A stretch of DNA of 64,000 nt from the NCBI GenBank assembly GCA_017558005.1, contig JAFYWN010000007.1, positions 9,374 through 73,373 on the forward strand. The letters are read 5' to 3'. Below the pieces are notes generated by a model. It was given only the letters and a program-made list of their open reading frames with translations. It was not told where the DNA came from and ran no database searches. Below are positions 3,620 through 55,091 of this stretch, piece by piece. The translations under genes were made by a program, and so were the position numbers. Positions within the stretch are counted from its first letter, which is position 1. The number at the start of each line of letters is the position of its first letter. Origin of the DNA: Kiritimatiellia bacterium (GTDB lineage Bacteria; Verrucomicrobiota; Kiritimatiellia; RFP12; DVOR01).

Positions 3620-4521
3620 TCCACCCGATCAAATTCTGCACGCTCAATCAACTGCGCACATAACGTTGGGAAATCCATCCCCGCGCGAGCCGCCGCCTCT
3701 GGCAGAAGACTCGTCGCCGTACATCCAGGCGTAGTATTAATCTCAAGGATGTAAGCCTCACCCTCATCTGTCACACGGAAATCAACGCGTACAGCACCAC
3801 GACACTTCGTTGCGGCCGCTGCTGCCACTGCAATTTTTTGCACCCGTTCCGTCAATTCAGAGGTCTCAGGATAAACATGGCGCGAGCCACCAGCAGCATA
3901 CTTCGCCGTAAAGTCATACCATCCGTTCGGCGCAATAATTTCAATCACTGGCAAGGCCTGACCATTTACCACCCCCACGGCCAATTCACGACCAGGGATA
4001 TAAACCTCTGCCAATGCCTCACCCGCAGCATCCTGCGCACAAGCTAAACGCACGGCATCAGCCCACTGGCAGGCCTCCGTTACCTTAGAAAGTCCAACAC
4101 TTGACCCATCCCGTGGCGGCTTCACCACTGCAGGCAATGGCAATGGACACGGAGCATCCGCTTCAGCAGCCGTCACCGTTACCCCTTGAGGTGTCTTAAT
4201 TCCAGCCGCTTCCAATACACGCTTCGTTGCCACCTTATCCATGCACAACTCGCTCGTCCAAGCGCCAGGACCTGTGTAGGGAATTTGACGAGCATCAAGA
4301 TCACGTTGAATACCGCCATTCTCGCCGTATCCACCATGCAAAGCAATAAAGACCGCCTCCACCCCATCTGGAAGCTCATCCAAAGACTCTTGAGTCAATC
4401 TCACTGGCAGCACTTCATACCCAGCATCACACAATGCCTTTGTCACTGCCTCACCTGAGCGTAAAGAAATCTCTGCTTCATGGGAAACACCGCCCATGAC
4501 TACCGCTATACGTTTTCGCAT
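3616..4521 (-). CDS. ddl: D-alanine--D-alanine ligase.
   Basis: The N-terminus RIAVVMGGVSHEAEISLRSG is Ddl-like, and the C-terminus carries an ATP-grasp block (EINTTPG). It occupies the expected position upstream of ftsQ. Start trimmed to MRKRIAVV (4519-4521). Confidence 0.85.
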   Translation of the reverse strand: MRKRIAVVMGGVSHEAEISLRSGEAVTKALCDAGYEVLPVRLTQESLDELPDGVEAVFIALHGGYGENGGIQRDLDARQIPYTGPGAWTSELCMDKVATKRVLEAAGIKTPQGVTVTAAEADAPCPLPLPAVVKPPRDGSSVGLSKVTEACQWADAVRLACAQDAAGEALAEVYIPGRELAVGVVNGQALPVIEIIAPNGWYDFTAKYAAGGSRHVYPETSELTERVQKIAVAAAAATKCRGAVRVDFRVTDEGEAYILEINTTPGCTATSLLPEAAARAGMDFPTLCAQLIERAEFDRVD

Positions 4522-4702
4522 GCCGAAATCCTCTATAAACGTTGCTATTTTATCAAATTTAACCCCATTCCACGAGCCCCACCCCCACATTTACCCCTAA
4601 AAATACGAAAAACAACAAAAAACAAGCCCCTTGACGCACATCAAGGGGCTCCTAAAAGTAATTGCATTGTAAGGCATCTAATAAGATTGGACACCTACGA
4701 CA

Positions 4703-5149
4703 TTACTTACCCAACTTGGCATTCAATGCTGCGTTTGCCTTGCGAGCACGAATTGCTTGTGCCATGTCGGTGCTGACGATACGTTTGCCCAACGGGTTAA
4801 ACGATGCTGCTGCAAGCTTGAAGGAGGCGATACCGAAAGGAATACCCACGATGGTGCAGAAGTAGCAGAGGCCCAAAAGACCATATGCGATCGCCGCCCA
4901 CAATCCATAAAAGATAATCCAAAGAACGGCCGCAATTCCGGTTCCTGCAACACGTTTTTCACCTACGTCTTCTGCATTCACCAACTCTTTTCCAAACGGG
5001 AAAAAGCCAAACATAGCCAAGCGGAAGGTAGCCACCCCGAACGGGATACCGATAATCGTGATGCACCACAATGCACCGGCGAGAATCATAGAAAGGCCCA
5101 TAGCCCAACCGCCTAAAATGAACCACAGCAAATTACCAACAAACGCCAT
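4703..5149 (-). CDS. YccF-like inner membrane protein (DUF307).
   Basis: There are two repeats of the GIPFG membrane motif (IIGIPFGVATFRLA and IVGIPFGIASFKLA), with size and hydrophobicity typical of YccF. Start trimmed to MAFVGNLLWF. Confidence 0.7.
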   Translation of the reverse strand: MAFVGNLLWFILGGWAMGLSMILAGALWCITIIGIPFGVATFRLAMFGFFPFGKELVNAEDVGEKRVAGTGIAAVLWIIFYGLWAAIAYGLLGLCYFCTIVGIPFGIASFKLAAASFNPLGKRIVSTDMAQAIRARKANAALNAKLGK

Positions 5150-5374
5150 AACTACCTCTTTGTAATTGCCCCGAAGTAACTTCTTTGATATAGATGGAGC
5201 ACTCTCAACCAAAGCTCTTGATGATCCAAAATGGTCTTCAAAGATTAATAGATACTATACTACCCTCATCCAACGTATGTCAAATATTTTTTGCGCCGAA
5301 TGACAACCACGCTCTAACACCTTATACATTGCATGAAGCAGTAAGCATCATAAGTGTATTCAGCATAAAAAAAC

Positions 5375-5874
5375 TCCTCCTCTCTACGCACACTAAAAGT
5401 GTAGCAAAATGGAGACAAGTAGTCAACTCTACCGACCCAGGTAAGCGAAAATTTCGCGGTAGGTAGGCGAAATTTTCGCTTGAAAATCGGCGACTTTGGT
5501 CACCCAATTTCGCTGACTTTGCTCAGGAATTTCGCTGATATTGCTCGCCAATTTCGCTGATATTGACCCGAAATTGTTTTAGCTTTCCCCAAAAAAGCTG
5601 CTACTTGTTGATAACTTTTCTAGCACCTCTACCCCAAAATTTCGCAAGGAAGCGACTGTAGCGGAGTTAATCTTGCCCTATTTTTGATTTATCTCTTTAT
5701 TTTTCAATGAGTTATGACCTTTTAACGAGATTGAGCAAAAAGGCCAAAAATCCGACAATCCGCCGAAGATTTTTCAAAAAACTGCGTCGAAAAAAGTGAA
5801 TTGTTGATAACTTGTTGATAACTCAAAAAAGTTTTCAACAGCCGAAAAATCGATAAAAAAGTACAAAAAGTGAC
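5375..5874. repeat. Copy A of a ~500-bp non-coding repeat element, with an inverted partner at 39046-39537.
   Basis: Reverse-complement alignment to 39046-39537 gives roughly 80-90% identity by eye. Three 22-bp direct iterons (AATTTCGCTGA at 5506, 5528 and 5550) are present. TGTTGATAA occurs at 5606-5614, 5802-5810 and 5813-5821. There are near-palindromes GCGAAAATTTCGC and an AT-rich tract (5680-5720). Confidence 0.8.
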
Positions 5875-6268
5875 AAACCTGCGTAAGGAAAATTTGAAGG
5901 GATTGAAGGGATAAAAGCGATAAGAGCGATAGAAGGGATGATGTGGGGACGCCGCCGCCCCACTCCTCTGTGAGAGCGCAGCTTATCGTAGCCCCTGCCC
6001 ACCGCGGCAGAGGTGAGTCCTGCACGCTACGCATCCTAGCGGATGCTTTTACTGGTGCTCTCGAGGAGGAAAGAGAGGAAGCTCCGAGGTGCGGCGGAGG
6101 CCGAAGAGCGCTTCGCAGGGGGGGGTCACGGGGAGGTGTGGCTGCGCGTAATGTACGGATAACACCGCTTGATTTTTTCGCATGGACGCATTTTTTGAAT
6201 GCGCAGTTATTGGCAAGTTTGGTATGATATTTATGTTTAATTTATTACAATTAAAGTAAGGAACGATT

Positions 6269-38707: not shown

Positions 38708-39045
38708 GCCTAACGGCATGGATGGTGGCTTTGCCACAGGACTGCCAGTGTGGGGGTCTCCACGAGTCGCACAGTCATGCACGCTGCGTCGCACGGGCAC
38801 ATATCCGTGCTCCGCCAGCGTGCGCTTGTCTCTTCTTACTCCTCTCTTCTCACTTCTTACTACAAGGGCGCAGCCGCTTAACTGGGGAATATGCGCTCGA
38901 GCACGAAGTGCTGAGAAACAGGCAACTCAAGTGAGCTTAGCGAACGAAACTTAGAACTTGTGGCGTAGCCACCCCGTGGACTCTAAAATTCGTATAAATT
39001 CGTAAAATTCGTGGTTAAAATCCCGTGCGCGAAAAGTTCACTTTT

Positions 39046-39537
39046 TCCATTTTTTCATCGATTTTTCGCTTGTTGAAAACTTTTTTTAGTTATCAACAAG
39101 TTATCAACAATTCACATTTCACGACGCAGTTTTTTGAAATTTTATGGCAGATCAACGGATTTTCGGCGTTTTTGCTCAACCTTGTTAAAAATGCATAACT
39201 CATTGAGTAGTATGGAGATAAAGCAAAAATAGAGCAAAATTAACTCCGCTACAGTCGCTTCCTTGCGAAATTTTGGACCCAGAGTGATAGAAAAGTTATC
39301 AACAAGTAGCAGCTTTTTGGGAGAAAGCTAAAGCAATTCCGGGTCAATATCAGCGAAATTGGTGAGCAGTATCAGCGAAATTGATGAGCAATATCAGCGA
39401 TTTCGGGTGACCAAAATCAGCGATTTTCAGGCGGAATTTTCGCTTACTTATCGCGAAATTTTCGCTTACCTGGTTCGGTAGAGTTGACTACTTGGCTCCG
39501 GTTTGCTACACTTTTAATGTGTGTAGAGAGAAGAGAT
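39046..39537. repeat. Copy B of the ~500-bp repeat element, inverted relative to copy A.
   Basis: It is the reverse complement of 5375-5874. Iterons TCAGCGAAATT occur at 39350, 39372, 39394 and 39417. TTATCAACA occurs at 39088, 39099 and 39296. Imperfect 32-50-bp direct repeats lie 216 bp outside each end (38795-38826 and 39754-39786). Confidence 0.8.
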
Positions 39538-39874
39538 TGGCTTCGCCATGTTTCGGGGTTTTGGGTTCTGGGTTCGGGGTTCGCGCCTGCGGCGCAGGAC
39601 GACGTGTGTTTAGGTTTTCCACGGTGGAGCACAATCTTGACGTTCGCTACCGCTCTCTGCCTCTCCTTGCGGAGATGGCCGACGGATTCGGCACTCCTCG
39701 CTACGGACAGGCGTCCTACTGCGGGCCCTCACCGTTGTCACGCTGCGAGAAATGGGCACATATCCATTTCTTCGCCAGCGTGCGCTCACCAAGATCTAAG
39801 GCGGCGTCCCTTTGCCCCTTCGTATTCGCCGCCCAACCAGGAACGCTCAACTGCAAGGGTATTGAATGGATAAA

Positions 39875-39919
39875 GAAAAACCCGCATAGCAGAACTCCAC
39901 GACAGAACTGCTATGCGGG
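39875..39919 (-). terminator. Rho-independent terminator on the minus strand at the left edge of the AT-rich island.
   Basis: A 12-bp perfect stem (CCCGCATAGCAG/CTGCTATGCGGG) with a 15-nt loop is followed on the minus strand by TTTTTCTTTAT. Confidence 0.55.
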
Positions 39920-40227: not shown

Positions 40228-41214
40228 TTGATGACTGAGATTAAAGAGTTTCATTTATTTGCAGGTATTGGTGGCGGGATTTATGGTGGTGAATTATTAG
40301 GCCACAAATGCTGTGCAGGTGTTGAAATCATGCCATATGCACAAAAAGTACTCAAGCAACGTCAAGAGGATGGTTGGTTGCCTAAATTCCCGATTTATGG
40401 TGACTTGTGTGTATTGGATGGAACGCCGTTTAAAGGTAAATTTGACATCCTTTGTGGCGGTTTCCCGTGTCAGGCGTTTAGTACTGCAGCACATGGGAAA
40501 AATATCGCGGCAAAGAATCTTTGGGGTGAAATGCTCCGTTTTGTAAAAGAGTCCGATGCTCCAATTGTATTTGGTGAAAATGTTGTTTTACGTGCAATTG
40601 AACAAGCAAAAGTTGACTTAGAAGCGATTGGTTACAAGGTTGAGCGTATTCGTTTGAGTTGTTCTGATATTGGTGCTGACCATCAACGTAACCGTTTTTG
40701 GGTACTGGCAGTAAAAGATTATGCTGTTTTTGAAAAAATTGCAGCCCATTTGAAACAATTGCCGAAGTTGACTGGTGATTGTTGGACGAAGAGTCCTTCT
40801 GAGACGGGTGCCCCTGTTGAAGTGAAGGTGGGTGACCGCCGAGATCAATTACTTGGTGTCGGTAATGCACAGTCTCCGTTTGTTGCAGCTACAGCATTTC
40901 GTATCTTGGTGAATCGCCATTTGAATCATATAGATAGGCGGTCTGAACTCGTCTCGGCTAAAGAATTGGATGCAGTGTTTGAGAAGCGTGAGACGTGGAT
41001 TCAGAAGACGTTTAATAACATTGGACTTGTACATACTCCGACAACAATGGCTAATTATGCATGTCCTTCAATGATGAAACATCAAGGGTGTCGTAATTTT
41101 ACTGTTGTTTTTGGGCGTCCACAACCTGAAAATGCCGAATACTTAATGGGCTTTCCTTTAGGCGCGAGTTCGCCAAATCCATTGCCTATAACAAACTTCA
41201 AGCGTTGGAGATGA
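40228..41214 (+). CDS. DNA (cytosine-5)-methyltransferase.
   Basis: The m5C MTase motifs are present: I (LFAGIGG), IV (GFPCQAFS), VI (ENV) and VIII (QRNRFW). The protein is 328 aa. Confidence 0.85.
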   Translation: MMTEIKEFHLFAGIGGGIYGGELLGHKCCAGVEIMPYAQKVLKQRQEDGWLPKFPIYGDLCVLDGTPFKGKFDILCGGFPCQAFSTAAHGKNIAAKNLWGEMLRFVKESDAPIVFGENVVLRAIEQAKVDLEAIGYKVERIRLSCSDIGADHQRNRFWVLAVKDYAVFEKIAAHLKQLPKLTGDCWTKSPSETGAPVEVKVGDRRDQLLGVGNAQSPFVAATAFRILVNRHLNHIDRRSELVSAKELDAVFEKRETWIQKTFNNIGLVHTPTTMANYACPSMMKHQGCRNFTVVFGRPQPENAEYLMGFPLGASSPNPLPITNFKRWR

Positions 41215-41561
41215 TTATGAGTGCAGGTCGGATTTTAGAGTCATTGGGTAAAAGGCGTATGAAGCCTTGGACTTATCCAAATTCATATGCAATCATTAAA
41301 CCCGCGAGTTTAATGGCTGAGCAATCAACAAATAGAGATTCGGCTTCTTGGAAAAAAGCTGAGTATATCGTAATTGATGAAGTTCAGTATGGCCAGGGGA
41401 AACACCTAATTCCTGCATGGTGTTATTTCACTGCGGCTGATCCAGATGGTGCGGCAGGCTTTCAAAAGTTGTTGATTAACATTGGCGGTGGCCAATATGC
41501 TATGTATGACAATATGGGGTGTGGTCCCAAAATCGGTACTTTACGTGAATTGGTAAAGTAA
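41205..41561 (+). CDS. Small protein paralogous to the N-terminal domain of the downstream McrB-like protein.
   Basis: WKKAEYIVIDEVQ and AADPDGAAGFQKLLINIGGGQYAMYDN align to WRTAEYIVVDEFNQ and DADPDKHHKIQKMLIRTGNNQYDLYNH of the next ORF. Its start overlaps the MTase stop. Confidence 0.6.
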   Translation: MEMIMSAGRILESLGKRRMKPWTYPNSYAIIKPASLMAEQSTNRDSASWKKAEYIVIDEVQYGQGKHLIPAWCYFTAADPDGAAGFQKLLINIGGGQYAMYDNMGCGPKIGTLRELVK

Positions 41562-41601
41562 TAGAAGTCGTTTGCTTACTTTTAAGGGAAGGAATAACAC
41601 G

Positions 41602-43962
41602 ATGGGGCGCGGTGGAAAGGCAAAAATTAGTGCAGCCGTTTGTGAAATGTTTGAACGGCTTGGAATTAAACGATTAGAGGCTTGGACACATTCAAACTCT
41701 TTTTCTGGGGCAACAATTTCTAATTTTACGTCACCGGATAACCAAAATCGTGCTAATCGCGGTCAATCAAATTGGAGAACCGCAGAGTATATTGTAGTTG
41801 ATGAGTTTAACCAAGAGAGCGAAGAGATTGATCAGAGCGAAGAGATTGATCTTTCTATATGGAAAGAGATTACGGATGCTGACCCTGACAAACATCATAA
41901 AATTCAAAAAATGTTAATTCGTACAGGTAATAATCAGTATGATTTGTATAATCATGATGCGAATAAAATTGCGTCAGGAAGTTTAGAAGAAATTGAGAAC
42001 TTTATACGAATAAACAATACACAATTACAATCAAAACAATTAGTGGTTCAAGACCGCTTATTGGTTGCTTTACAGTTGTTTACAACGAAACGTGGTTCGT
42101 ATCAATTTAACCCTGTGTTACCTAACGAAGAGGTTACTGCAGAAAATTATTCTTACGAACATCTTGATAATTGGAAGGCCTTTTGCACGGAAGTGCAGGA
42201 GTCTCCATCGGATATTTCGGTTTGTTTCGCATCCAAGGTGGTCAAAGACCTTGGGATGCTCCCATCACTTCTAACACGTTTTTTAGTTCGTTTGGCGCCT
42301 TCAGTCTACGCTGCATGTTCAGAGCATACGGCAGAGGCATTGTATTTTCTTGAGTTGACGAAAACGAAGGTGTTACCTGAGGATTTGACAGCTGATGCGT
42401 ATGAGTCTTCTAAGGCAGTGCAGACGCAGATTCGTGATAAGATGCGTAAGATGAAGATTCTTTCTCAAGAGGGAAAAGAGGCGAATTATCTCACACTAGC
42501 AGAGTTTTTGTGGTTTGTTAATGACAACAAGGATTTGATCGAGGGTAAAGTTATGGAAAAGCAAATTAAGTCGGTTAATAAAACTAAGGTTAAAGAAGAT
42601 TCTCGCAAAGAGAAGCGTTTGAAGTGTAAGACTGCGGACGATGTTTTGATTTTCCGTTTAATGGCAACATTGCGCACGAAGCCTTTTGCCATTCTTGCGG
42701 GGCACTCGGGTACGGGTAAGAGCCGTTTGGTGCGTAAGTTGGCATACATGACGTGTAATGTGGAAGAACTTCAGAATACAGAGAAGAATTCCCCAGAGAA
42801 CTTTTGCATGGTGCAGGTGAAGCCGAATTGGCATGACTCTATGGATTTATTGGGGTATCGCAGTGCATTTGAAGATAAAAGTTATGTGACGACGGATGTG
42901 GTGAAGTTTATTTGTAAAGCGTATGCCTATCCTGAAACACCCTTTTTCCTTTGCTTAGATGAGATGAATCTTGCACCTGTTGAGCAATACTTTGCTGAAT
43001 TCTTAAGTGCGATGGAGTCGTTGCGAGAACTTAAAAGTTCTGACGAGGAGACATCTTCTGACGAGGAGACATCTTCTGACGAGAAGACATCTTCTGACGA
43101 GAAGACATCTTCTGACGAGGAGACATCTTCTGACGAGAAGATGTCTTACACCTCGGATACGCTTTTTACGTTGACTGACGATGAATTAAAGTCTCAAAGT
43201 AAGTTGTTTGATTTAGGGTGTGAAACCGGTGTGGGGCAAACGTATTTGACGAAACGTGGCGGTGTGACGATTCCAAAGAATCTCTTTGTCGTTGGCACTG
43301 TGAATATGGATGAAACCACATGCCAATTCTCTCGTAAGGTGCTTGACCGTGCGATGACGATTGAAATGACGGATGTAAACTTTGCCAATTTCGGCAAAGT
43401 GGCCGATCCAAGTTTTACGGACCTGCTTGCAGAAGAGATTGTTCAACTTTTGCTCAATGGAGACATTAAGGTTGAAAGCCTTGATACCGAGGATGTTGCT
43501 ACTGACTCAAAACTGTGTAAGCTTCAGCAACGTTTAGCGAAGACCTCTTTTGCGATTGCATATCGTTTTGCGAAGGAATACACGTTGTTTAAGAGAGCTA
43601 TTGAGGAATTTAAAAAACATATTTCAGGATCCCCTCAAAAATCTGAGGATGAATCTTCAGAAGTTGCTGAGACACCTGAAGACTCCAAGCCTTCAGAGGC
43701 CTCAAATTCTGGAATGCGTGAGACTGTGGACAACTTAGATGCCTTAGATCAAATGGTCTTAATGAAAGTGTTGCCACGTATTATGGGGAGAACTGAAGAC
43801 GTTAAGGCAATATTCACAGGGGTGCGCGATTTTAATCCTGAGGGTTCAAAAGAGCCTATGTCGGATTCACTTTTAGGCATTTTTGGGAAAACGTCTGAGT
43901 CAGGCAAGAAGATGATTGAGATTATGGAGCGAGGTGGCTCACATTTGACTTTTTGGCCGTAA
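41602..43962 (+). CDS. McrB-like AAA+ GTPase with a variable N-terminal domain and an acidic tandem-repeat insertion.
   Basis: The Walker A ILAGHSGTGKSRL and Walker B FFLCLDEMNL are present. McrB-like blocks NWHDSMDLLGY and VVGTVNMDETT are present. A GGAAGGA RBS precedes MGRGG. Confidence 0.7.
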   Translation: MGRGGKAKISAAVCEMFERLGIKRLEAWTHSNSFSGATISNFTSPDNQNRANRGQSNWRTAEYIVVDEFNQESEEIDQSEEIDLSIWKEITDADPDKHHKIQKMLIRTGNNQYDLYNHDANKIASGSLEEIENFIRINNTQLQSKQLVVQDRLLVALQLFTTKRGSYQFNPVLPNEEVTAENYSYEHLDNWKAFCTEVQESPSDISVCFASKVVKDLGMLPSLLTRFLVRLAPSVYAACSEHTAEALYFLELTKTKVLPEDLTADAYESSKAVQTQIRDKMRKMKILSQEGKEANYLTLAEFLWFVNDNKDLIEGKVMEKQIKSVNKTKVKEDSRKEKRLKCKTADDVLIFRLMATLRTKPFAILAGHSGTGKSRLVRKLAYMTCNVEELQNTEKNSPENFCMVQVKPNWHDSMDLLGYRSAFEDKSYVTTDVVKFICKAYAYPETPFFLCLDEMNLAPVEQYFAEFLSAMESLRELKSSDEETSSDEETSSDEKTSSDEKTSSDEETSSDEKMSYTSDTLFTLTDDELKSQSKLFDLGCETGVGQTYLTKRGGVTIPKNLFVVGTVNMDETTCQFSRKVLDRAMTIEMTDVNFANFGKVADPSFTDLLAEEIVQLLLNGDIKVESLDTEDVATDSKLCKLQQRLAKTSFAIAYRFAKEYTLFKRAIEEFKKHISGSPQKSEDESSEVAETPEDSKPSEASNSGMRETVDNLDALDQMVLMKVLPRIMGRTEDVKAIFTGVRDFNPEGSKEPMSDSLLGIFGKTSESGKKMIEIMERGGSHLTFWP
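43036..43146 (+). repeat. Six 18-bp tandem repeats encoding (SSDEET/SSDEKT)n inside the McrB-like gene.
   Basis: The direct nucleotide repeat TCTTCTGACGAGGAGACA occurs 6 times with G/A variation. Confidence 0.8.
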
Positions 43963-46224
43963 GTGTGTGAAAGACTGATGAAACAAAAAAAAGTTTTTGC
44001 GTTTGAGATTCCAGGGCTGTTGAGCTTCTGCGTCACAGGGAATAACACTGGACGCGTGGAGCGTTATTGTAAGCGTATTAAGTGCACATCTCAAGACGAT
44101 AAAGCGAAGGTTTTGTTTCAGGCAAATCGCAAAGGGACGTGGCATTTTTTTGAACCGAAAAGTGAGACTGTTGAGGAGAATGTTACTGCAAGCGCTTTAC
44201 CTGTCTTTTATGAAACGACTTATCAAGTAAAATGCAAGTTTGAGCGCAAGGTGAAAGATGTGCGTGTGTCGCACAAATTGGTGAGCGTGGCGGACGAGTT
44301 CTACTATGACGAAGAGGATTGTTGTCTTTCGGGGCCGCTCAATTTCATTAATACACCCGGTAAATTTGCCTTTGAGATAAATATTGAGATGGCAACAGGG
44401 GAAACGACTACATTGAAATTAGAGTGGTGGGTCGTCTCCGAGAAGATGAATGTTATTGAGGATTATAGTGCCATTGTAGAAAAGGTGTCTTCAGTGAAGC
44501 CCGAATTGGTGTATGCCTTTTTGGCTAAGACCATGAATGAGAGTGGGCTTTCTTCTGAAAAGGGACAGTCGGATGCAGTGTGGTATGATATTTTTCAAAC
44601 GCTTGTCTCAACGTATCGTTCGGCTTGTGAACATGTGGTTCATAATCCGCATTTAAGGTATGTGGAGCATGAGCAGTATTTGCGTGTGAACCAAATACGG
44701 CGATGGACGCCAGCGTTAATGCAACGTTACCAACAGACGGATAAGTCTGTACGTGAAATGCGTCATTTTCACGCAACAGAAGTCGTCCCAGAGGTGGATA
44801 CTGTTGAAAATCGGTTTGTGCTGTTTACGTTAACAAAGATTGCAGAACGATTGCGAGATTTCGCAAAACGTTGCCGAGAAGAGGGTGGCGGTAAGATTAG
44901 TGAAGACTTCATCAAGCAGATGGAGGTTGATGCGACATCATTTGAAGAGATGACTTATCATCCATTCTTCCGTGAGGTGGGGCATTATAATGGTGTTGTG
45001 CAAGAGAGTTTGGCACTTCTTCGAAAGCGTGGATATGCCGAGATTTACGACACATGGTTGAAATTAAAACATTCGTTAGACCTCACTGGAAGCGGCATTG
45101 ATGTGGGAAATAATCCCATTTGGAAGTTGTATGAGTTCTGGTGCTTCTTGATGATTCGAGATTGGTTAATGGAGCGTTATCCAGATCCCAAGGGCTCATT
45201 AGGAGATGTCGTAGAAACATCGGATATTTTTGAAGACCCATATGATGAAGCCACAGGAGAAACGAAACAACCTGCTGGAAGTAAAAAGTGTGAGTATGTA
45301 TTTAAAGATGAAATGGGCAATCGTGAGATTGTGCTCACCTATCAGCTTTCGTATGGTCATGGAAAGAATGGCTCTGAGGATGTGTCAGGGCATCTTTCTT
45401 ATGTGGTAGAGCAGATTCCTGATATTGTGATGACAATTAAGGACTTAGGCATTGCACAGAATGAGCATACCTATCTCTTTGATGCGAAGTATCGCATTAT
45501 GCAGTATCCATCGGCAACAGACCATCAAAAAGACGCATCTCCTCATGCTGCAATAAATGACATGCATCGTTATCGTGATGCGATTCTTTATCGTAGTCAA
45601 AAAAGCGGGAAGCTTTCGCGTGAAGTGATTGGTGCGTATGTACTTTTTCCTGGACGGCTGGGAGAGTCTTACGATTATACAGAAATCATTAGAAATGAGA
45701 ATATCGGTGCGATCCCTCTCTTACCTGGTGAAGAGGGGACGAAAGCACTATTAGCATTCCTTGAAGAGATTATTACCCGTGGCACACCAAAAGAGCACCT
45801 TGAAAAGGTAATCCCCACGCGTGGTACTTCGGCGGTCTTGGGTGACGATATGCCGTTAGGATTCCCCAAAGGGGAGAATATTATTCGCATTTCCTCAACA
45901 GAGAAACGGCCATACTACGAGTATTTTAATGAATTAAGAGGCTCAACAATACCAACATTCTTCTATTTGACGCAATTGGCATGTGAATATGATGGTAATA
46001 CTTCTGAGCAAAATGCCTCCCAAAAACAGATGGTCATCATTTGGGCAGAGACGGATAAACGTCTTCCCATTCGAGTATTGTTGGGAAAATATCATGGATG
46101 TCAGAAATACGATAAAGAATCTATTTACAGATTAGATAATAATTTTTCGGGTGGAAATTCATTAGAAGTCGCTTTGGAAAAGAGTGATAAGGTTTATGTT
46201 TGGGAGATTATAAGTGTGGAGTGA
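43963..46224 (+). CDS. McrC-like nuclease subunit (PD-(D/E)xK).
   Basis: It lies immediately downstream of and abutting the McrB-like gene. Its C-terminal region carries a PD...D-x-K arrangement (EQIPDIVMT ... LFDAKYR). The protein is 753 aa. Confidence 0.6.
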   Translation: MCERLMKQKKVFAFEIPGLLSFCVTGNNTGRVERYCKRIKCTSQDDKAKVLFQANRKGTWHFFEPKSETVEENVTASALPVFYETTYQVKCKFERKVKDVRVSHKLVSVADEFYYDEEDCCLSGPLNFINTPGKFAFEINIEMATGETTTLKLEWWVVSEKMNVIEDYSAIVEKVSSVKPELVYAFLAKTMNESGLSSEKGQSDAVWYDIFQTLVSTYRSACEHVVHNPHLRYVEHEQYLRVNQIRRWTPALMQRYQQTDKSVREMRHFHATEVVPEVDTVENRFVLFTLTKIAERLRDFAKRCREEGGGKISEDFIKQMEVDATSFEEMTYHPFFREVGHYNGVVQESLALLRKRGYAEIYDTWLKLKHSLDLTGSGIDVGNNPIWKLYEFWCFLMIRDWLMERYPDPKGSLGDVVETSDIFEDPYDEATGETKQPAGSKKCEYVFKDEMGNREIVLTYQLSYGHGKNGSEDVSGHLSYVVEQIPDIVMTIKDLGIAQNEHTYLFDAKYRIMQYPSATDHQKDASPHAAINDMHRYRDAILYRSQKSGKLSREVIGAYVLFPGRLGESYDYTEIIRNENIGAIPLLPGEEGTKALLAFLEEIITRGTPKEHLEKVIPTRGTSAVLGDDMPLGFPKGENIIRISSTEKRPYYEYFNELRGSTIPTFFYLTQLACEYDGNTSEQNASQKQMVIIWAETDKRLPIRVLLGKYHGCQKYDKESIYRLDNNFSGGNSLEVALEKSDKVYVWEIISVE

Positions 46225-46374: not shown

Positions 46375-47985
46375 ATGGCGAGTCATCTTCATTTTCAAAC
46401 AGCTTTCTCGGTAAAGCCCACGGGGGTGCATTCTGCGCGAGAATTGTTTTCGAAGCTGCAAACAGTTATTTTTAATTGGGTTTGTCAAAAGCAGAATAAA
46501 CATGGTTATAAGCAAATAGATATTGATGCATTCAAGAAGAAGCTTGAAGTGCAGGGGTTTGTCAATGGTGCGAAATTGAAAACCGTTTCTTGCTTTATGG
46601 ATGATGAGATATCTTGGGCAATGCGTTTTGAGGAGCTTGACACCTCGGATGCATCGCGTCCATGGACAACAGAGGTGGGGATGTATTTAAGTGATGAAAA
46701 TGGAGCTGTTAACTTTTCCTATACAACATACTATAGGACGTCGGTGGCGGAGGAGTTTGAAAAGCCTATTAAGCCAACATACAAGTTTCCACATTTGATT
46801 AAATTAATTTTGGAAATACCAGGAACACAAGTCTATTTTAGCGGAGGATTACCCTTAACGTCATCCTACACTAAAATTAGGACTTCACAAGAGGCATTAA
46901 ACTTTATTTCCGCAGCGAATGATGGGAATCGAGAGGATTCGCTTGTTTTAGTAATGGGAGCTTCGCGTGAAAATGAAATGCGGGCAAGAAATCTAGCACA
47001 GACACTTTATGGAAAGGTGTGCGTCTTTCTTGCAGATAGAACGCCAGAAGTGCTTGAGACATTTTGTAACAAAAAACATACTTTTAACCTTGGTCAAATA
47101 AGGATTTATTATCCACGTAAAAGTCGAGGGTCAAAAGACTACTCAAAAGATAAATTAAACGAGCTTGACAATGCAATAGCACAATTATTAAAAATCCCTG
47201 CGATAAAGACTCCGACTTCGGTTCGAACCCTTTCAGATGTGATGCATCGTCGCCTATTCATAAAGCTTACTGGGCTTAATGAGTTTTTTAATAAATTAAA
47301 AAAGGCTGCGCAGAGTGAACTGAAGCGCGAAGAGGTTGATATGGATTTTATCAATCTGGTGCAAGAGACAAATGAAGAACTGCAAAAGGAAAATGAGAAG
47401 TTGCGAAATGAAATAGAGACTATTGAAGCGGTCGCAGAATCAGAAATGAAAGAATTGAGAGACGTGTTTGCGAAGAAAGAAGCTGAGTATTTGGCTCAGA
47501 TTAGAAGTCAAAAAAAGACACCTTCGCTACCACGTGAATTTCCTGCCAAACTTACAGATGTCTTAGCGTGGGCTAAACTTTTGCCGAATCTAATGATTGC
47601 ACAGAGTGCTCATGCTTCAGCTAAGAAGTATGAGCAATTCAAAGAGTTTAGTGTAGCATGGGATATGCTACTTGCACTGAATAGCGTTTTGTTTAGGTTA
47701 AAATTTACTGAAAATAAAAGTAATTTCTGGACAGAATTTCAGGATCGTACAGGTTATGAATTTGCGAAAGGTGAAGGACCTAAGACAAATAGTGATACTG
47801 CTTTGGTCAAGCTTCGTCAATTCCAGCATAATGGGAAATCATATGAAGGGTGGATGCACTTAAAGTATGGAAATCAACCCAATAAGCTTCTTCGTATTCA
47901 TTTTGATTTTGATGAAGAATTGCGAAAAATTGTAGTGCTTCATGTGGGAGATCATATCCCTAATGCCACAACCGGTAAACTTTAA
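46375..47985 (+). CDS. Hypothetical coiled-coil protein, paralog A (536 aa).
   Basis: A long ORF in the AT-rich island is homologous over its full length to the next ORF. It has a central coiled coil and a conserved C-terminal module (HLKYG...LRIHFDFDEELRKIVVLHVGDH). Confidence 0.65.
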   Translation: MASHLHFQTAFSVKPTGVHSARELFSKLQTVIFNWVCQKQNKHGYKQIDIDAFKKKLEVQGFVNGAKLKTVSCFMDDEISWAMRFEELDTSDASRPWTTEVGMYLSDENGAVNFSYTTYYRTSVAEEFEKPIKPTYKFPHLIKLILEIPGTQVYFSGGLPLTSSYTKIRTSQEALNFISAANDGNREDSLVLVMGASRENEMRARNLAQTLYGKVCVFLADRTPEVLETFCNKKHTFNLGQIRIYYPRKSRGSKDYSKDKLNELDNAIAQLLKIPAIKTPTSVRTLSDVMHRRLFIKLTGLNEFFNKLKKAAQSELKREEVDMDFINLVQETNEELQKENEKLRNEIETIEAVAESEMKELRDVFAKKEAEYLAQIRSQKKTPSLPREFPAKLTDVLAWAKLLPNLMIAQSAHASAKKYEQFKEFSVAWDMLLALNSVLFRLKFTENKSNFWTEFQDRTGYEFAKGEGPKTNSDTALVKLRQFQHNGKSYEGWMHLKYGNQPNKLLRIHFDFDEELRKIVVLHVGDHIPNATTGKL

Positions 47986-48004
47986 TGCCTAAGGGAATAG
48001 TGTT

Positions 48005-49690
48005 ATGCCAAAATTAAATGACAAAAATATTAATTATCACGCTTCATTCGTGATTGATCATCAAGATTCAAAGCAGACGTTTCATGCCATTCTTGAAATT
48101 TTAAAGAAATGGCTGAAGGAGAAAGAGCGTAGTTTTAAGAATCCTAAGATGAAAGATGTGTATGGGGTATTCTCTACATTTGATCAATCTCAATCTGCAA
48201 CATTTGGTAGCAGAACTGAAACGCGACATTTGAAGATTCAATCCGCAGAAAATAAGGAAAAGAAATTATGGGGATTTGAATATTCGCATCCTCAATTTAA
48301 CAATCGCAAGTCAATGCTGATTCGGTATTGGTATGTAGAAGTCTATATCACATCCTTTAAAAATACAAATAATGTCGCGGTGTATGTCTGTGTTTCATAT
48401 AGTTGGAATCGAACAAAGATGCTTGAAGAAGATGATGCACGTCTTCCAACGCCCACAGTTCCAGGCTTTATGAAAAACTTGGTAAAGACATTTAATCTTC
48501 ATATAGAGGGATGTCCGTTCAGTTTCTCGCCTAAACCTTATCTTTTAAACACAAAAGAAGATGTGGAGCCATTTATTGATTTGCTTAGGGATGATGATCG
48601 AAAAACATTTATTTTACTTTCAACATATTCGCCTACTTACCAAGCTGCAGAAGACTTTTTAAAACGATTGGCGGAAAAGGTATTAGGGAAAGCATTATTT
48701 TTTCACGTAGATCCTACAAAGGAGGCGTTTAAGTATCTAAAACGTGCAAATGTTTTTGAGAAGCTTGAATCGAATACCATCTACATTATTTCAGAGATGA
48801 GGAAAGGCCGTTTAGGAATTCAATGGATATTATCACCTCCTGGTCCTACTGAGGCTTATTTTGATAATACATCTAACCGATTGCAAGAGTTCTTTTATCG
48901 AAATCAGATTGTACTTGCTGATGGCGCAATAACCTCTTTTTCTGCAATTTTTTCTGCGGATTTGTTTGAGCGTTTTCAAAAGGAGCGTGATGCTAAACTG
49001 TCTGCGCAAGGCGCTAAAGAAGAGGCAATTGGCAATGCTCATGCTGCGGAGGAATTGTTTGAAGATTTATACGTGCGTAACGAGAATACAGTGAATGAAA
49101 ACAAGACCCTTAAAGATGAGAATAAGGATTTAAAGAATAGACTCGCACATGAGCAACGAGAACACAAGCGAAAAGAGAATGAACTAAAAACTCAAGTTGA
49201 TAACGCAGAGTCTCGTCTTGTAACAGCTTTCTACAACTCTGCGCAATGTAAAAAGTTGCGAGATAAAGTGGAGTGTTTAAAAGAGATTTTATCCCCAAGG
49301 CTTGTATTTACAGATAAATCACTCTCAAGTTTAGAGCGGTGTACAAGAGAAAATGAAGCAGAATTGATAGAGGGATTAATAGCCTTGTATCATATTTTGT
49401 GGCCAATTCATATTAAGGGCGCAATTGGACAACGTATAGAAGATGTCTTTAAGAGTACAAAATTTAAGTATGCGCCTCAAGAAAATCAGGAAACAATGGA
49501 TGTTCTAGACTATCGAAAAGATCGTACGGTCACGTATAATGGTAAAGATTATGTTTGCGAGAGTCATCTTAAGTTTGACAAAAATGGACGTATCTATTTT
49601 AAGTTTTCAGAGGAGTTAAAGAAGATAGTGTTATGTGTTCTTGGAGTTCACCTAGATACTGCAGGCACAAAACGTAAAAGTATTAATTGA
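48005..49690 (+). CDS. Hypothetical coiled-coil protein, paralog B (561 aa).
   Basis: It is the tandem paralog of 46375-47985. The C-terminal module HLKFDKNGRIYFKFSEELKKIVLCVLGVH is shared. No known domain is recognised. Confidence 0.65.
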   Translation: MPKLNDKNINYHASFVIDHQDSKQTFHAILEILKKWLKEKERSFKNPKMKDVYGVFSTFDQSQSATFGSRTETRHLKIQSAENKEKKLWGFEYSHPQFNNRKSMLIRYWYVEVYITSFKNTNNVAVYVCVSYSWNRTKMLEEDDARLPTPTVPGFMKNLVKTFNLHIEGCPFSFSPKPYLLNTKEDVEPFIDLLRDDDRKTFILLSTYSPTYQAAEDFLKRLAEKVLGKALFFHVDPTKEAFKYLKRANVFEKLESNTIYIISEMRKGRLGIQWILSPPGPTEAYFDNTSNRLQEFFYRNQIVLADGAITSFSAIFSADLFERFQKERDAKLSAQGAKEEAIGNAHAAEELFEDLYVRNENTVNENKTLKDENKDLKNRLAHEQREHKRKENELKTQVDNAESRLVTAFYNSAQCKKLRDKVECLKEILSPRLVFTDKSLSSLERCTRENEAELIEGLIALYHILWPIHIKGAIGQRIEDVFKSTKFKYAPQENQETMDVLDYRKDRTVTYNGKDYVCESHLKFDKNGRIYFKFSEELKKIVLCVLGVHLDTAGTKRKSIN

Positions 49691-50015: not shown

Positions 50016-50058
50016 ACAACCCCACCCCGCCACGAACATTGTTCGGGCGGGTTTTTCT
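50016..50058 (+). terminator. Rho-independent terminator at the right edge of the island.
   Basis: The stem CCCGCCACGAACA/TGTTCGGGCGGG is followed by TTTTTCTTTCGTTT. Confidence 0.45.
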
Positions 50059-50078
50059 TTCGTTTCTAAGGATGTGAA

Positions 50079-53000: not shown

Positions 53001-53540
53001 CAAGAGGCCTCGATCCCGTGAATCCGAACAAAGACACTTCCCCTCAGCGAGCCCATTGGGAAGCATTTTAAATGTAATTGGCAATTTTACATGGTTGCCC
53101 GCAACGGTTGCCTGTCCATTTGGATAAGCAAAACTTACTTGTGAGACTGCCCCCGACTTGAGTAAGCGCGTCGCACGGACCAAGGTTGTGGCATCAGCCC
53201 ACTTTTCAATTTGGGCTAATGATGGGGCGCGCTCAGCAGAAAAGGTTACCGAATCTGCCGAACCTCGCTGCTGATCCACCCATGCCAAAGCAACGGCTAT
53301 CGCGTGTGCACACATGCCCTCTTTTTGCGCGGCGGCACAAACACACTGCACCTTAGGACGGCCCTCTGTTAATGTAATGCGCGGCACGATACGCGCGGCG
53401 CCAATCTTCAGTGAGGCGGCAATTGTAGAACCGCTACTTTGCACCTTCCCCTGCAATGCGCCAGAAGTGTACAGCCGATGCCCTTGTTCAGCCATTTCCA
53501 AGTTTGCCCACGTGGCAATTTGTTCGCGCGTCAATCTCAT
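50079..53540 (-). CDS. SWIM zinc-finger / SNF2-family helicase.
   Basis: There are two N-terminal SWIM CxC...CxH motifs (VQCVCAAAQKEGMCAHAIAV and CLCSDSRDRGLLCEHIVAGM). SNF2 motifs follow (ILADEMGLGKTLQ, DEAQAIKN) with a C-terminal helicase domain. Confidence 0.9.
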   Translation of the reverse strand: MRLTREQIATWANLEMAEQGHRLYTSGALQGKVQSSGSTIAASLKIGAARIVPRITLTEGRPKVQCVCAAAQKEGMCAHAIAVALAWVDQQRGSADSVTFSAERAPSLAQIEKWADATTLVRATRLLKSGAVSQVSFAYPNGQATVAGNHVKLPITFKMLPNGLAEGKCLCSDSRDRGLLCEHIVAGMLAVMHLYGSESRRQQCDEERSRMARLSQAKDLIQRDPHGRPALLRVFLPSLQSLREAFYNGTVRIGIRIYVAGKAWKPQELPKERYAFSEGDEDLIGIFEDITEGAFTDTIDLSQADTLSIIRCAAKSWVGFATERKQIRMCKEPVQTPIRLRPNLETDSLIVSIGAPQAGVLLVHGTQGFLIEGADAHPVASTLPLPYQAVYCEPVQVSRGALVHFYRNELPQMTAALPLDEESVPFELFTTTPGEPRFVLELDGDENYVTARLKACYGNNYVTVGSKEEVSQPDPDDFYHCYVRNREAERAALEYTQAMGFYGSDGKHLGTVSGTRAIRNLLGEHIPAVRRVGWRVILSGAINDCFERAEMIVPVVSVKPSATGTSFELTTVYESPQGKLSVSAAEIERALSHGNAYIEKEGALALIDINALRTLRKTLASCHATAGKTPGSSCVEAVHVPFVEAVLASLDGIDFETHPDWRKRAAAQNREEKPEPVPLGRLEETLRPYQKEGVYWLRFLETCGFCGILADEMGLGKTLQTLTWLQLPRYREEARRAPALIICPTSLVENWRREALKFVPWLRCLVLSGPDRFNKFKKVPESDLVITSYALIRRDTEFHTKCAYSAVVLDEAQAIKNQRTQNAQAVKQLRSDTRLVLSGTPIENGVSDLWSIMDFLMPDYLGKYDAFKLRYEDAVALGGRAAELAQDQLRKKLHPFLLRRVKKEVAPDLPDKIRTVMYCELTPSQRNAYDRIREHVRTRMRNLVKEKGFEKSRFEVLADLMRLRQICCDACLMPDYKVADGEETSAKLNTLMELLAEARSGGHRMLIFSQFTSMLKRIAARLTEEEIRFCYLDGSTKNRLDECARFNQDTTISVFLISLKAGGTGLNLTGADMVVHFDPWWNPAAEEQATDRAHRIGQKRTVQAIKLIAQDTIEEKVLEMQRKKQALIEATVNATDASIVSTLTMAEIEDLLS

Positions 53541-53765
53541 AAATCTAAAAACTTCTCAGCATATTTCAGGGGCATCTCAATGCACCGCTTTATCTAACCG
53601 CAAGCATAACAAAAATAGTATGATTTCTCAACATCCTCCCTCGCATGATAGACCGTTTTAGCACACGAAGCCCCCATTTTCATTTCCCAAACCTAAAAAT
53701 AAGAGTAGTATCTTTTTTCTTTTTATGGTATGCTAACCGCATCAACCTTGAAAGGAGTTTGAATT

Positions 53766-55091
53766 ATGAGCGGCATTTTTAAAGCCTATGACATTCGTGG
53801 TATCTATGGTGAGGACTTAACTGAAGCGATTGCCTATGACATTGGCAAGGCCTATGTTACGTTTACGCAAGCAAAGAAAGTGGTGATCGGCCGTGACTGC
53901 CGTCCGCACTCCATTCCTTTGCAGGAAGCATTGACGCGTGGCATTACCGAAATGGGCGCTGACGTTGTGGATATCGGCGAATGCTCCACCCCGATGAATT
54001 ACTTTGCAAACGGCACGTTGAAGGCGGAAGGTTCGATCATGATTACGGCCTCCCACAATCCTGCCGAATGGAACGGATTTAAGCTCTGCCGTGCTGAAGC
54101 AGTGCCGATTTCTGGCGTGACTGGCATTGAAGACATTGAAGCCATTGTCAAGGCTCAGGCATTCAAGCCTGTGGCAGATACGACTGGCACTGTCAGCACC
54201 TATGACATCCTTCCTGAATATCGCGAACACATTCGCCCCTTCATGAACTTTGCTCGTCGTCCGAAGTTGGCCATTGACTACGCCAACGGCATGGGCATTC
54301 CCGAAGCAAAGACCTTTGAAGATGCAATTGACCAGACCCGCCTCTTCGGTGATATCGATGGTAGCTTCCCCAACCATGAAGCAAACCCCCTGCACCACGC
54401 TACCTTGGCTGACCTGCAGAAGGAAGTCCGCGCAGGCAAGTATGACTTCGGCGTTGCTTTCGACGGTGACGCAGACCGCGCAGGCTTCATCGATGAAAAG
54501 GGTGACATCATCCCGATGGACCTCATCACCGCACTCATCGCTCAGGATGTGCTGAGCCGCGAAAAGGGCGTTATCTTCTACGATCTGCGTTCGAGCCGCG
54601 TCGTTAAGGAAGTGATTGAAGCAGCGGGTGGCGTGCCGATGATGAGCCGCGTGGGCCATGCCTTCATTAAGGCACAGATGCGCGAACACAAGGCTATCTT
54701 CGCAGGCGAACTCTCTGGTCACTACTACTTCCGCGACAACTTTGTAGCAGAATCCTCCTCCATGGCAGTGATTGCACTCTGCAACATCGTGACCAATTCG
54801 GACAAGCCCCTCTCTGAACTCATCGCACCGCTGCGCAAGTATGCCTGCTCTGGCGAAATCAACACCAAGGTTTCCCGTGACCCGAAGGAAATCCTCGCCG
54901 AAATCAAGGAAAAGTATGCCGATGGCAATGTCTTTGAATTGGACGGCGTGAGCGTGGATTATCCCACTTGGTGGTTGAATGTGCGCTGCTCCAACACCGA
55001 ACCGCTCGTGCGTCTCAACCTCGAAAGCACCAAGAGCACCGAGGAAATGGAAGCCAAGCGCGATGAAGTGCTTGCCTTGATTCGCAAGTAA
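53766..55091 (+). CDS. Phosphomannomutase/phosphoglucomutase (alpha-D-phosphohexomutase).
   Basis: The N-terminus is FKAYDIRG, the active-site region is TASHNP, and GVAFDGDADR is the Mg-binding loop. Confidence 0.85.
   Translation: MSGIFKAYDIRGIYGEDLTEAIAYDIGKAYVTFTQAKKVVIGRDCRPHSIPLQEALTRGITEMGADVVDIGECSTPMNYFANGTLKAEGSIMITASHNPAEWNGFKLCRAEAVPISGVTGIEDIEAIVKAQAFKPVADTTGTVSTYDILPEYREHIRPFMNFARRPKLAIDYANGMGIPEAKTFEDAIDQTRLFGDIDGSFPNHEANPLHHATLADLQKEVRAGKYDFGVAFDGDADRAGFIDEKGDIIPMDLITALIAQDVLSREKGVIFYDLRSSRVVKEVIEAAGGVPMMSRVGHAFIKAQMREHKAIFAGELSGHYYFRDNFVAESSSMAVIALCNIVTNSDKPLSELIAPLRKYACSGEINTKVSRDPKEILAEIKEKYADGNVFELDGVSVDYPTWWLNVRCSNTEPLVRLNLESTKSTEEMEAKRDEVLALIRK

Follow-up and report, generated by a model that had tools for sequence, protein, structure and literature searches.

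HEC-07 (Hma-embedded candidate 07) was described by Payne et al. (bioRxiv 10.1101/2024.01.29.577857) as a single-gene system, originally embedded in Hma, and is represented in PADLOC-DB v2 by models PDLC04158-04161. In that study, 7 of the 9 HEC candidates lowered plaquing in E. coli, HEC-07 included, and only HEC-01 and HEC-09 failed. The published domain description gives HEC-07 an N-terminal AdoMetDC-like domain, a thioredoxin-like domain without CxxC, and a C-terminal RelE-family (HP0892-like) fold, with a conserved C-terminal histidine (H543 in the tested protein). The Menshen protein NsnC has a C-terminal PB-BECR1 domain with the BECR RNase fold and an H-R-H triad (Li et al., NAR 2025, PMC12065111). 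Here, we investigated two adjacent genes in a 64,000-nucleotide (nt) stretch of contig JAFYWN010000007.1 from a Kiritimatiellia bacterium, referred to below as the window. We call their proteins A (open reading frame [ORF] 46375-47985) and B (ORF 48005-49690), and all coordinates of this locus are those of the window. It is probable that A and B are two anciently diverged, independent HEC-07-type genes that lie head-to-tail at the 3' end of a defense island.

Both genes lie on the forward strand and have exactly the coordinates and lengths that an earlier note on this DNA had assigned to them, 536 amino acids (aa) for A and 561 aa for B. A starts with ATG and has an AGGAG ribosome-binding site upstream. 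The note had also called the two proteins collinear paralogs, and BLASTP confirms this, aligning A and B over 481 residues at 23% identity (E = 4e-9). The gap between the genes is 19 nt, not 18 nt as first counted.

The earlier note had suggested a profile search with PADLOC, and when run, this search matched both A and B to HEC-07, a defense family. A matched PDLC04161 with E = 3.2e-29, residues 22-533 aligning to positions 37-553 of the 553-position model, and also matched the HEC-07 models PDLC04158 and PDLC04160. B matched PDLC04161 with E = 4.4e-19, in two stretches, and PDLC04160 with E = 8e-9. Homologs that sit beside HmaA score alike on HEC-07 (1.7e-31 and 1.7e-30 at loci L010 and L011), as does the homolog at an Hma-like locus, L004 (1.3e-19). 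The two genes had been presented in the note as undescribed proteins that match no named system, but PADLOC-DB v2 and the literature already contain their family, and its domains have been described in print. Likewise, the statement that they hold no nuclease or other known domain was a by-eye view only, and profile searches identify the family. Pfam and NCBIfam searches, which were performed on whole A and B and on their isolated N- and C-terminal parts, returned coiled-coil noise only.

Word-indexed homolog searches returned 1-3 matches even when a 100-sequence profile was used, and coiled-coil words probably swamped these searches. An exhaustive HMMER search is what revealed the size of the family. 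Counting clusters at 50% identity, it returned 1,824 cluster representatives at E≤1e-3, of which 749 also passed E≤1e-10, mostly 540-580 aa long and matching end to end. A belongs to the main clade of the family, and B to a small, deep-branching side clade that holds 10 of 100 sampled members. The two proteins are 18-23% identical to each other, while each is 25-34% identical to members of its own clade. We therefore rejected a recent tandem duplication as the origin of the pair, as both proteins have nearer relatives within their own clades than in one another.

AlphaFold models of A and B (pLDDT 91.0 and 90.4, respectively) contain the same four parts in identical order. In A, these are a beta-rich N-domain (residues 1-135; 46375-46779), a thioredoxin-like domain without CxxC (residues 136-285; 46780-47229), a helical hairpin (residues 286-385; 47230-47529) with helices at 286-313 and 318-379, and a C-terminal predicted BECR/RelE-type RNase domain (residues 386-536; 47530-47982), all encoded on the + strand. 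The corresponding C-terminal predicted RNase domain of B spans residues ~415-561 (49247-49687, + strand). A thioredoxin-like second domain that lacks the CxxC active site is a trait of HEC-07 and is present here; in B, the thioredoxin fold is matched by Foldseek at a probability of 1.00. The AdoMetDC-like N-terminal domain published for HEC-07 was not reproduced by fold searches of A and B.

The Lys/Glu-rich coiled coil that the note had described is seen in both models as the long helical hairpin, in which K, E, R, D, and Q together make up 0.41-0.44 of the residues, compared with 0.31-0.33 across the whole proteins. The note had also described a shared C-terminal module of ~60 aa. Its motifs (HLK, R-I-H/Y-F, EEL-R/K-K-I-V, and G-x-H) are all present, but the domain that carries them is larger, at ~150 aa (residues 386-536 of A). 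The catalytic core is 35% identical between A and B, compared with 14-16% for the N-terminal, thioredoxin-like, and hairpin parts.

We predict that the C-terminal domain is an RNase of the BECR/RelE-YafQ type. This assignment follows from the hidden Markov model (HMM) links to HEC-07 and NsnC, from the published structural analyses of those families, and from an invariant H-R-H triad; the fold comes from the literature by way of the HMM matches, and the conservation of the triad was observed here. The PADLOC NsnC models match residues 387-529 of A and 319-555 of B, with E values of 1e-10 to 1e-13 (4.5e-13 for B). In an alignment of 100 diverse family members, only three columns, H, R, and H, are invariant. 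The putative catalytic triad of A is H495 (codon 47857-47859), R507 (47893-47895), and H527 (47953-47955), within 47857-47955 on the + strand. That of B is H521 (49565-49567), R529 (49589-49591), and H549 (49649-49651), within 49565-49651 on the same strand. In this alignment, the near-invariant positions of the N-terminal half are three Trp, one Pro, and one Arg, and those of the C-terminal domain are E467, T471, R481, and G525. All positions conserved in at least 90% of members are kept in both A and B. H527 lies 10 residues from the C-terminus of A, much like H543 in the ~553-aa HEC-07 protein, and we infer from this position near the C-terminus, not from an alignment, that H527 and H549 are the equivalents of H543.

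Several results weigh against an RNase assignment. Alignment of the C-terminal profile to that of YafQ (4ML2_A) using hhalign gave a probability of 0.7%, which is not significant, and HMMER searches of PDB sequences with both the full-protein and the C-terminal profiles found no relative. Furthermore, the Pfam BECR families (RelE/YafQ/ParE) were not matched by the isolated C-terminal region even at E≤10, and the literature reports neither RNase activity nor a catalytic mutant for HEC-07. The whole-chain fold-search lists were saturated by domains other than the C-terminal one, and the RelE/YafQ fold was not directly confirmed there.

We then compared the surroundings of homologs at 26 non-self loci, which comprise 3 genome loci of the B clade, the contigs of two B relatives (76% and 31% identical), 20 main-clade metagenome loci, and a Klebsiella plasmid. 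The B-clade genome loci and the main-clade metagenome loci were retrieved using smaller, clade-specific alignments, and the family HMM was run over all ORFs of each locus. Where there was enough flank to judge (~15 loci), the gene sits in or beside a known defense system in 10 cases. HmaA lies directly upstream at two loci (L010 and L011, E down to 0). Elsewhere, the homolog comes after BrxL (L009), after a DpdF-like helicase (L006), or after RE_NgoBV, an NgoBV-type restriction endonuclease (L026). At L007, it has a Type IIG restriction-modification (R-M) system upstream and DruE downstream, and at L004, it stands between a ResIII helicase and N6-methylase on one side and a UvrD-like ATPase on the other. 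Type I restriction endonucleases are found nearby at L014 and L020, as are CARF and Cas3-HD-like genes at L008. The association with defense islands is thus conserved, in the form of a free-standing cassette that lodges in many systems and not as a partner of McrBC. What stands of the anti-phage reading in the earlier note is the defense role itself, on the strength of the HEC-07 matches, the plaquing data for the family, and the context of homologs; its claims of novelty, of a module, and of a link to McrBC do not.

The plasmid locus (L028) is Klebsiella pneumoniae plasmid NZ_CP107315.1, which carries a solo HEC-07-family gene at 53180-54769 (PADLOC E = 3e-30), with a LAGLIDADG homing endonuclease gene immediately upstream and the RepB gene nearby. 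The plasmids that host this gene are ~111 kb, non-mobilizable, and IncFIB (9 records). Therefore, the family also travels on plasmids.

This plasmid member sits among non-defense genes, and one metagenomic homolog, at L014, is disrupted. Both observations would suit a main role other than phage defense, with A and B serving as addiction or stabilization toxins of the island or being decaying remnants, and RelE/BECR RNases are indeed classic toxins of toxin-antitoxin systems (PMC11980606). However, no antitoxin-sized partner gene is present, and the ORFs of A and B are intact and retain every conserved residue. The context of defense systems is also strongly conserved, and a family member lowered plaquing experimentally. 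We consider a non-defense role extremely unlikely. The disrupted homolog, at 3625-5256 of its locus, is one family member split into two ORFs (3625-3969 and 3973-5256), which is either a pseudogene or a sequencing error.

Whether A and B form a module is a separate matter. The earlier note had proposed a module or a toxin/effector pair and had suggested looking for co-occurrence of homologs as a pair beside McrBC or other defense genes. In all 26 loci outside the lineage, there is one family copy per locus; the tandem pair occurs in 0 of 26, and McrBC is never adjacent (0/26). The 76%-identical ortholog of B is solo, being the homolog that follows RE_NgoBV. The pairing of A and B is specific to this lineage, where it is found on all contigs (L001 and L002), and the locus with the pair, whose source is a Kiritimatiellae metagenome-assembled genome, is also present on a 213-kb European Nucleotide Archive contig. 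We rejected a toxin-antitoxin or effector-regulator pair, as no catalytic or conserved residue has been lost from either A or B. Since every family-conserved residue is retained in each, neither looks like a regulator or an antitoxin.

Two points count against treating A and B as independent. Approximately half of the 26 loci are short-flanked (~12 have at least ~2 kb on both sides), so that a pair count of 0/26 is weaker than it sounds. Additionally, the 19-nt spacing, with no evident promoter between the genes, means that A and B are co-expressed, as an obligate pair would be. Such a pair, in which neither protein works alone, would be a two-gene variant of HEC-07 that forms a heterodimer through the hairpins, with two sensor heads and two RNase domains. 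The co-directional genes, in what appears to be a single operon with one downstream terminator, would fit this arrangement, as would the long hairpin in both proteins, which is suited to pairing, and the joint presence of A and B throughout their lineage. However, HEC-07 was tested as a single-gene system, none of the 26 other loci is paired, the 76%-identical ortholog of B stands alone behind its restriction gene, and the retention of all conserved residues in both proteins gives no sign of sub-functionalization. We find an obligate heteromer unlikely. It also seems improbable that this lineage has brought two anciently diverged paralogs together in a single operon to function as a unit, either as a two-headed heteromer or as a layered arrangement in which the NxD-type McrBC first restricts modified DNA and the RNases are an abortive backstop. 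If true, it would add a two-gene or three-layer variant to a system described until now only as a single gene. Our preferred reading is that of two independent HEC-07-type genes.

The genes upstream of A encode a methylase/McrBC module, which we treat as context and judge to be a separate system. It consists of a C5-methyltransferase (40228-41214; PF00145), a small ORF of 118 aa (41205-41561), a McrB-like GTPase (AAA_5) with an NxD signature (41572-43962), and a McrC-like protein with DUF2357 and a PD-(D/E)xK nuclease (43963-46224; PDDEXK_7 E = 1e-28, with 'IPD...FDAKY' intact), all on the + strand. At residue 575, the McrB-like protein reads 'GTVNMDE', the shortened NxD(+E) signature, in place of NxxD. 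A methyltransferase-associated NxD McrBC branch was named by Bell et al. and left for a later paper (eLife 2024, PMC11090510). Our module, with its leading C5-methylase and intact McrC nuclease, fits this branch.

The 118-aa ORF and the N-terminal domain of the McrB-like protein (41572-42100) are paralogous, with 33% identity over 116 aa (E = 8e-21). The ORF is thus an unfused duplicate of what is presumed to be the specificity (reader) domain, and for the N-terminus of the McrB-like protein itself, which is a ~115-aa domain paralogous to the small ORF, a small specificity domain would fit better than a coiled coil. A further feature of the McrB-like gene is an 18-nt tandem repeat of ~six copies at 43020-43163, which is translated into an acidic insert rich in Ser (SSDEET/SSDEKT) that follows the Walker A region.

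The GC fraction is 0.36-0.44 between ~40 and ~50 kb of the window compared with 0.50-0.54 in the flanks. This profile, together with the Pfam matches, confirms what the note had reported, an AT-rich island in which the pair comes after a methyltransferase/McrB-like/McrC-like module. All six island genes (methyltransferase, small ORF, McrB-like, McrC-like, A, and B) are co-directional within this one low-GC island. That arrangement is what one would expect if A and B served the upstream NxD-type McrBC as accessory RNase effectors, in a CoCoNuT-like arrangement with McrB/McrC sensing or translocating and then activating A and B. The 'GTVNMDE' signature is that of the branch that includes CoCoNuTs, and RelE-like domains and BrnT-like RelE toxins have been reported with CoCoNuT operons (PMC11090510). 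However, the McrC-like protein keeps both DUF2357 and an intact D...DxK nuclease, and CoCoNuTs add nucleases mainly when McrC is inactive (PMC11090510). A gap of 150 nt separates the McrC-like gene from A, and the lower GC of A (0.39) and B (0.36) than of the McrBC genes (0.42-0.43) hints at separate acquisition. The 26 homologs neighbor many different systems and never McrBC, which also removes the specific link to the McrBC module that the note had drawn. We regard an effector role under McrBC as very unlikely. CoCoNuT membership of the island was rejected, as McrC is intact and neither HEPN nor CnuH was found in the island using Pfam and PADLOC.

Downstream of B, the note had placed a terminator at 50016-50058. 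The hairpin and T-run are real, but are located at 50026-50060 (minimum free energy -20.2 kcal/mol, z -2.43), ~335 nt past the B stop codon, and close the island on the + strand. A perfect 14-nt inverted repeat (AAAGAAAAACCCGC / GCGGGTTTTTCTTT) is found at the two borders of this low-GC region, at 39872-39885 and 50047-50060. Each copy is the 3' stem arm plus T-run of an outward-facing terminator-like hairpin, and the island is therefore bracketed by similar terminators. The window contains no tRNA gene, the island and its surroundings gave no Rfam match, and no ORF of integrase size lies inside the island.

A noncoding element of ~500 bp occurs twice in the window, in inverted orientation and at ~88% identity, at ~5385-5880 (- strand) and ~39040-39545 (+ strand). 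One copy lies immediately before the defense island, and the other is followed by a small ORF and a gene for a membrane protein. Three DnaA-box-like TTATCAACA sites are present per copy (6 in the window vs 0.5 expected), along with a 22-nt iteron-like array (ATCAGCGAWWT; 6 vs 0.2 expected) and a promoter-like TTGACT-17-TACACT end. The element may have a regulatory function, or it may be the origin of an integrated element.

Most likely, A and B each act alone as a self-contained sensor-effector, probably as a homo-oligomer whose subunits are joined through the long helical hairpin. The beta-rich N-domain and the redox-dead thioredoxin-like domain would form the sensor or regulatory part. Upon infection, the RNase domain would be released to cut RNA, either ribosome-bound mRNA, as with RelE and YafQ, or tRNA. 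Cleavage would then halt translation and abort the infection. The likely benefit of having two copies is two trigger specificities, which we propose because the effector is shared (the 35% identical core) but the other parts are divergent. In such a scheme, the RNases of A and B may be an RNA-level backup behind DNA restriction by McrBC.

These results correct the status of the pair, as what had looked like a candidate undescribed defense module belongs to a family that PADLOC-DB already lists, for which domains have been described and a phage assay was positive. They also show that the HEC-07 family is far larger than its Hma context, with members beside BREX, Druantia, Dpd-like, Type I/II/IIG R-M, and CARF genes as well as on Klebsiella plasmids. 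The H-R-H triad, which is common to Menshen NsnC, is a precise mutagenesis target for this family of predicted RNases. Furthermore, the stacking of two distant members in one operon is a natural test case for whether HEC-07 works solo or as a heteromer.

Among known systems, CoCoNuTs and the NxD McrBC branch (PMC11090510) resemble this island in having an NxD McrB, an association with a methylase, and coiled-coil proteins with predicted RNase domains in the same island. They differ in that the McrC nuclease is intact here, the partners are not of the HEPN or CnuH type, and homologs of A and B are never beside McrBC. The Type II toxin-antitoxin RNases of the RelE, YafQ, and HP0892 group share with A and B, as proposed in the literature, the BECR fold and a C-terminal catalytic His that follows Gly-x ('...TGTH' in YafQ and '...VGDH' in A), and the likely outcome, RNA cleavage and translation arrest, would be the same. 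However, they are toxins of ~90 aa with an antitoxin, whereas A and B are multidomain proteins of ~540 aa without an antitoxin gene, and the Asp of the YafQ triad is replaced by Arg in A and B.

Menshen NsnC has a homologous C-terminal domain of ~150 aa with the identical H-R-H triad. Unlike NsnC, A and B do not have the inPIN N-terminal domain, and instead have beta-rich and thioredoxin-like domains over the N-terminal 290 residues. Their predicted sensor part and effector share one polypeptide. The Menshen partners NsnA (ParB-DUF262) and NsnB (ABC ATPase) are not among the six island proteins, as judged by PADLOC and the corresponding Pfam families. HEC-07 is the closest match. Like HEC-07, A and B match the profile HMM (A over its full length), are ~530-560 aa long, have a CxxC-less thioredoxin-like domain and an invariant His near the C-terminus, and belong to a family whose genes lie in or beside other defense systems. 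This locus nevertheless differs from the described system. HEC-07 was described as one gene, and here two distant members lie in tandem, one of which, B, is from a deep side clade. Whereas the original was nested inside Hma, A and B come after a methylase/NxD-McrBC module and are not nested in it. What is left as new is the tandem arrangement and the NxD-McrBC neighbor.

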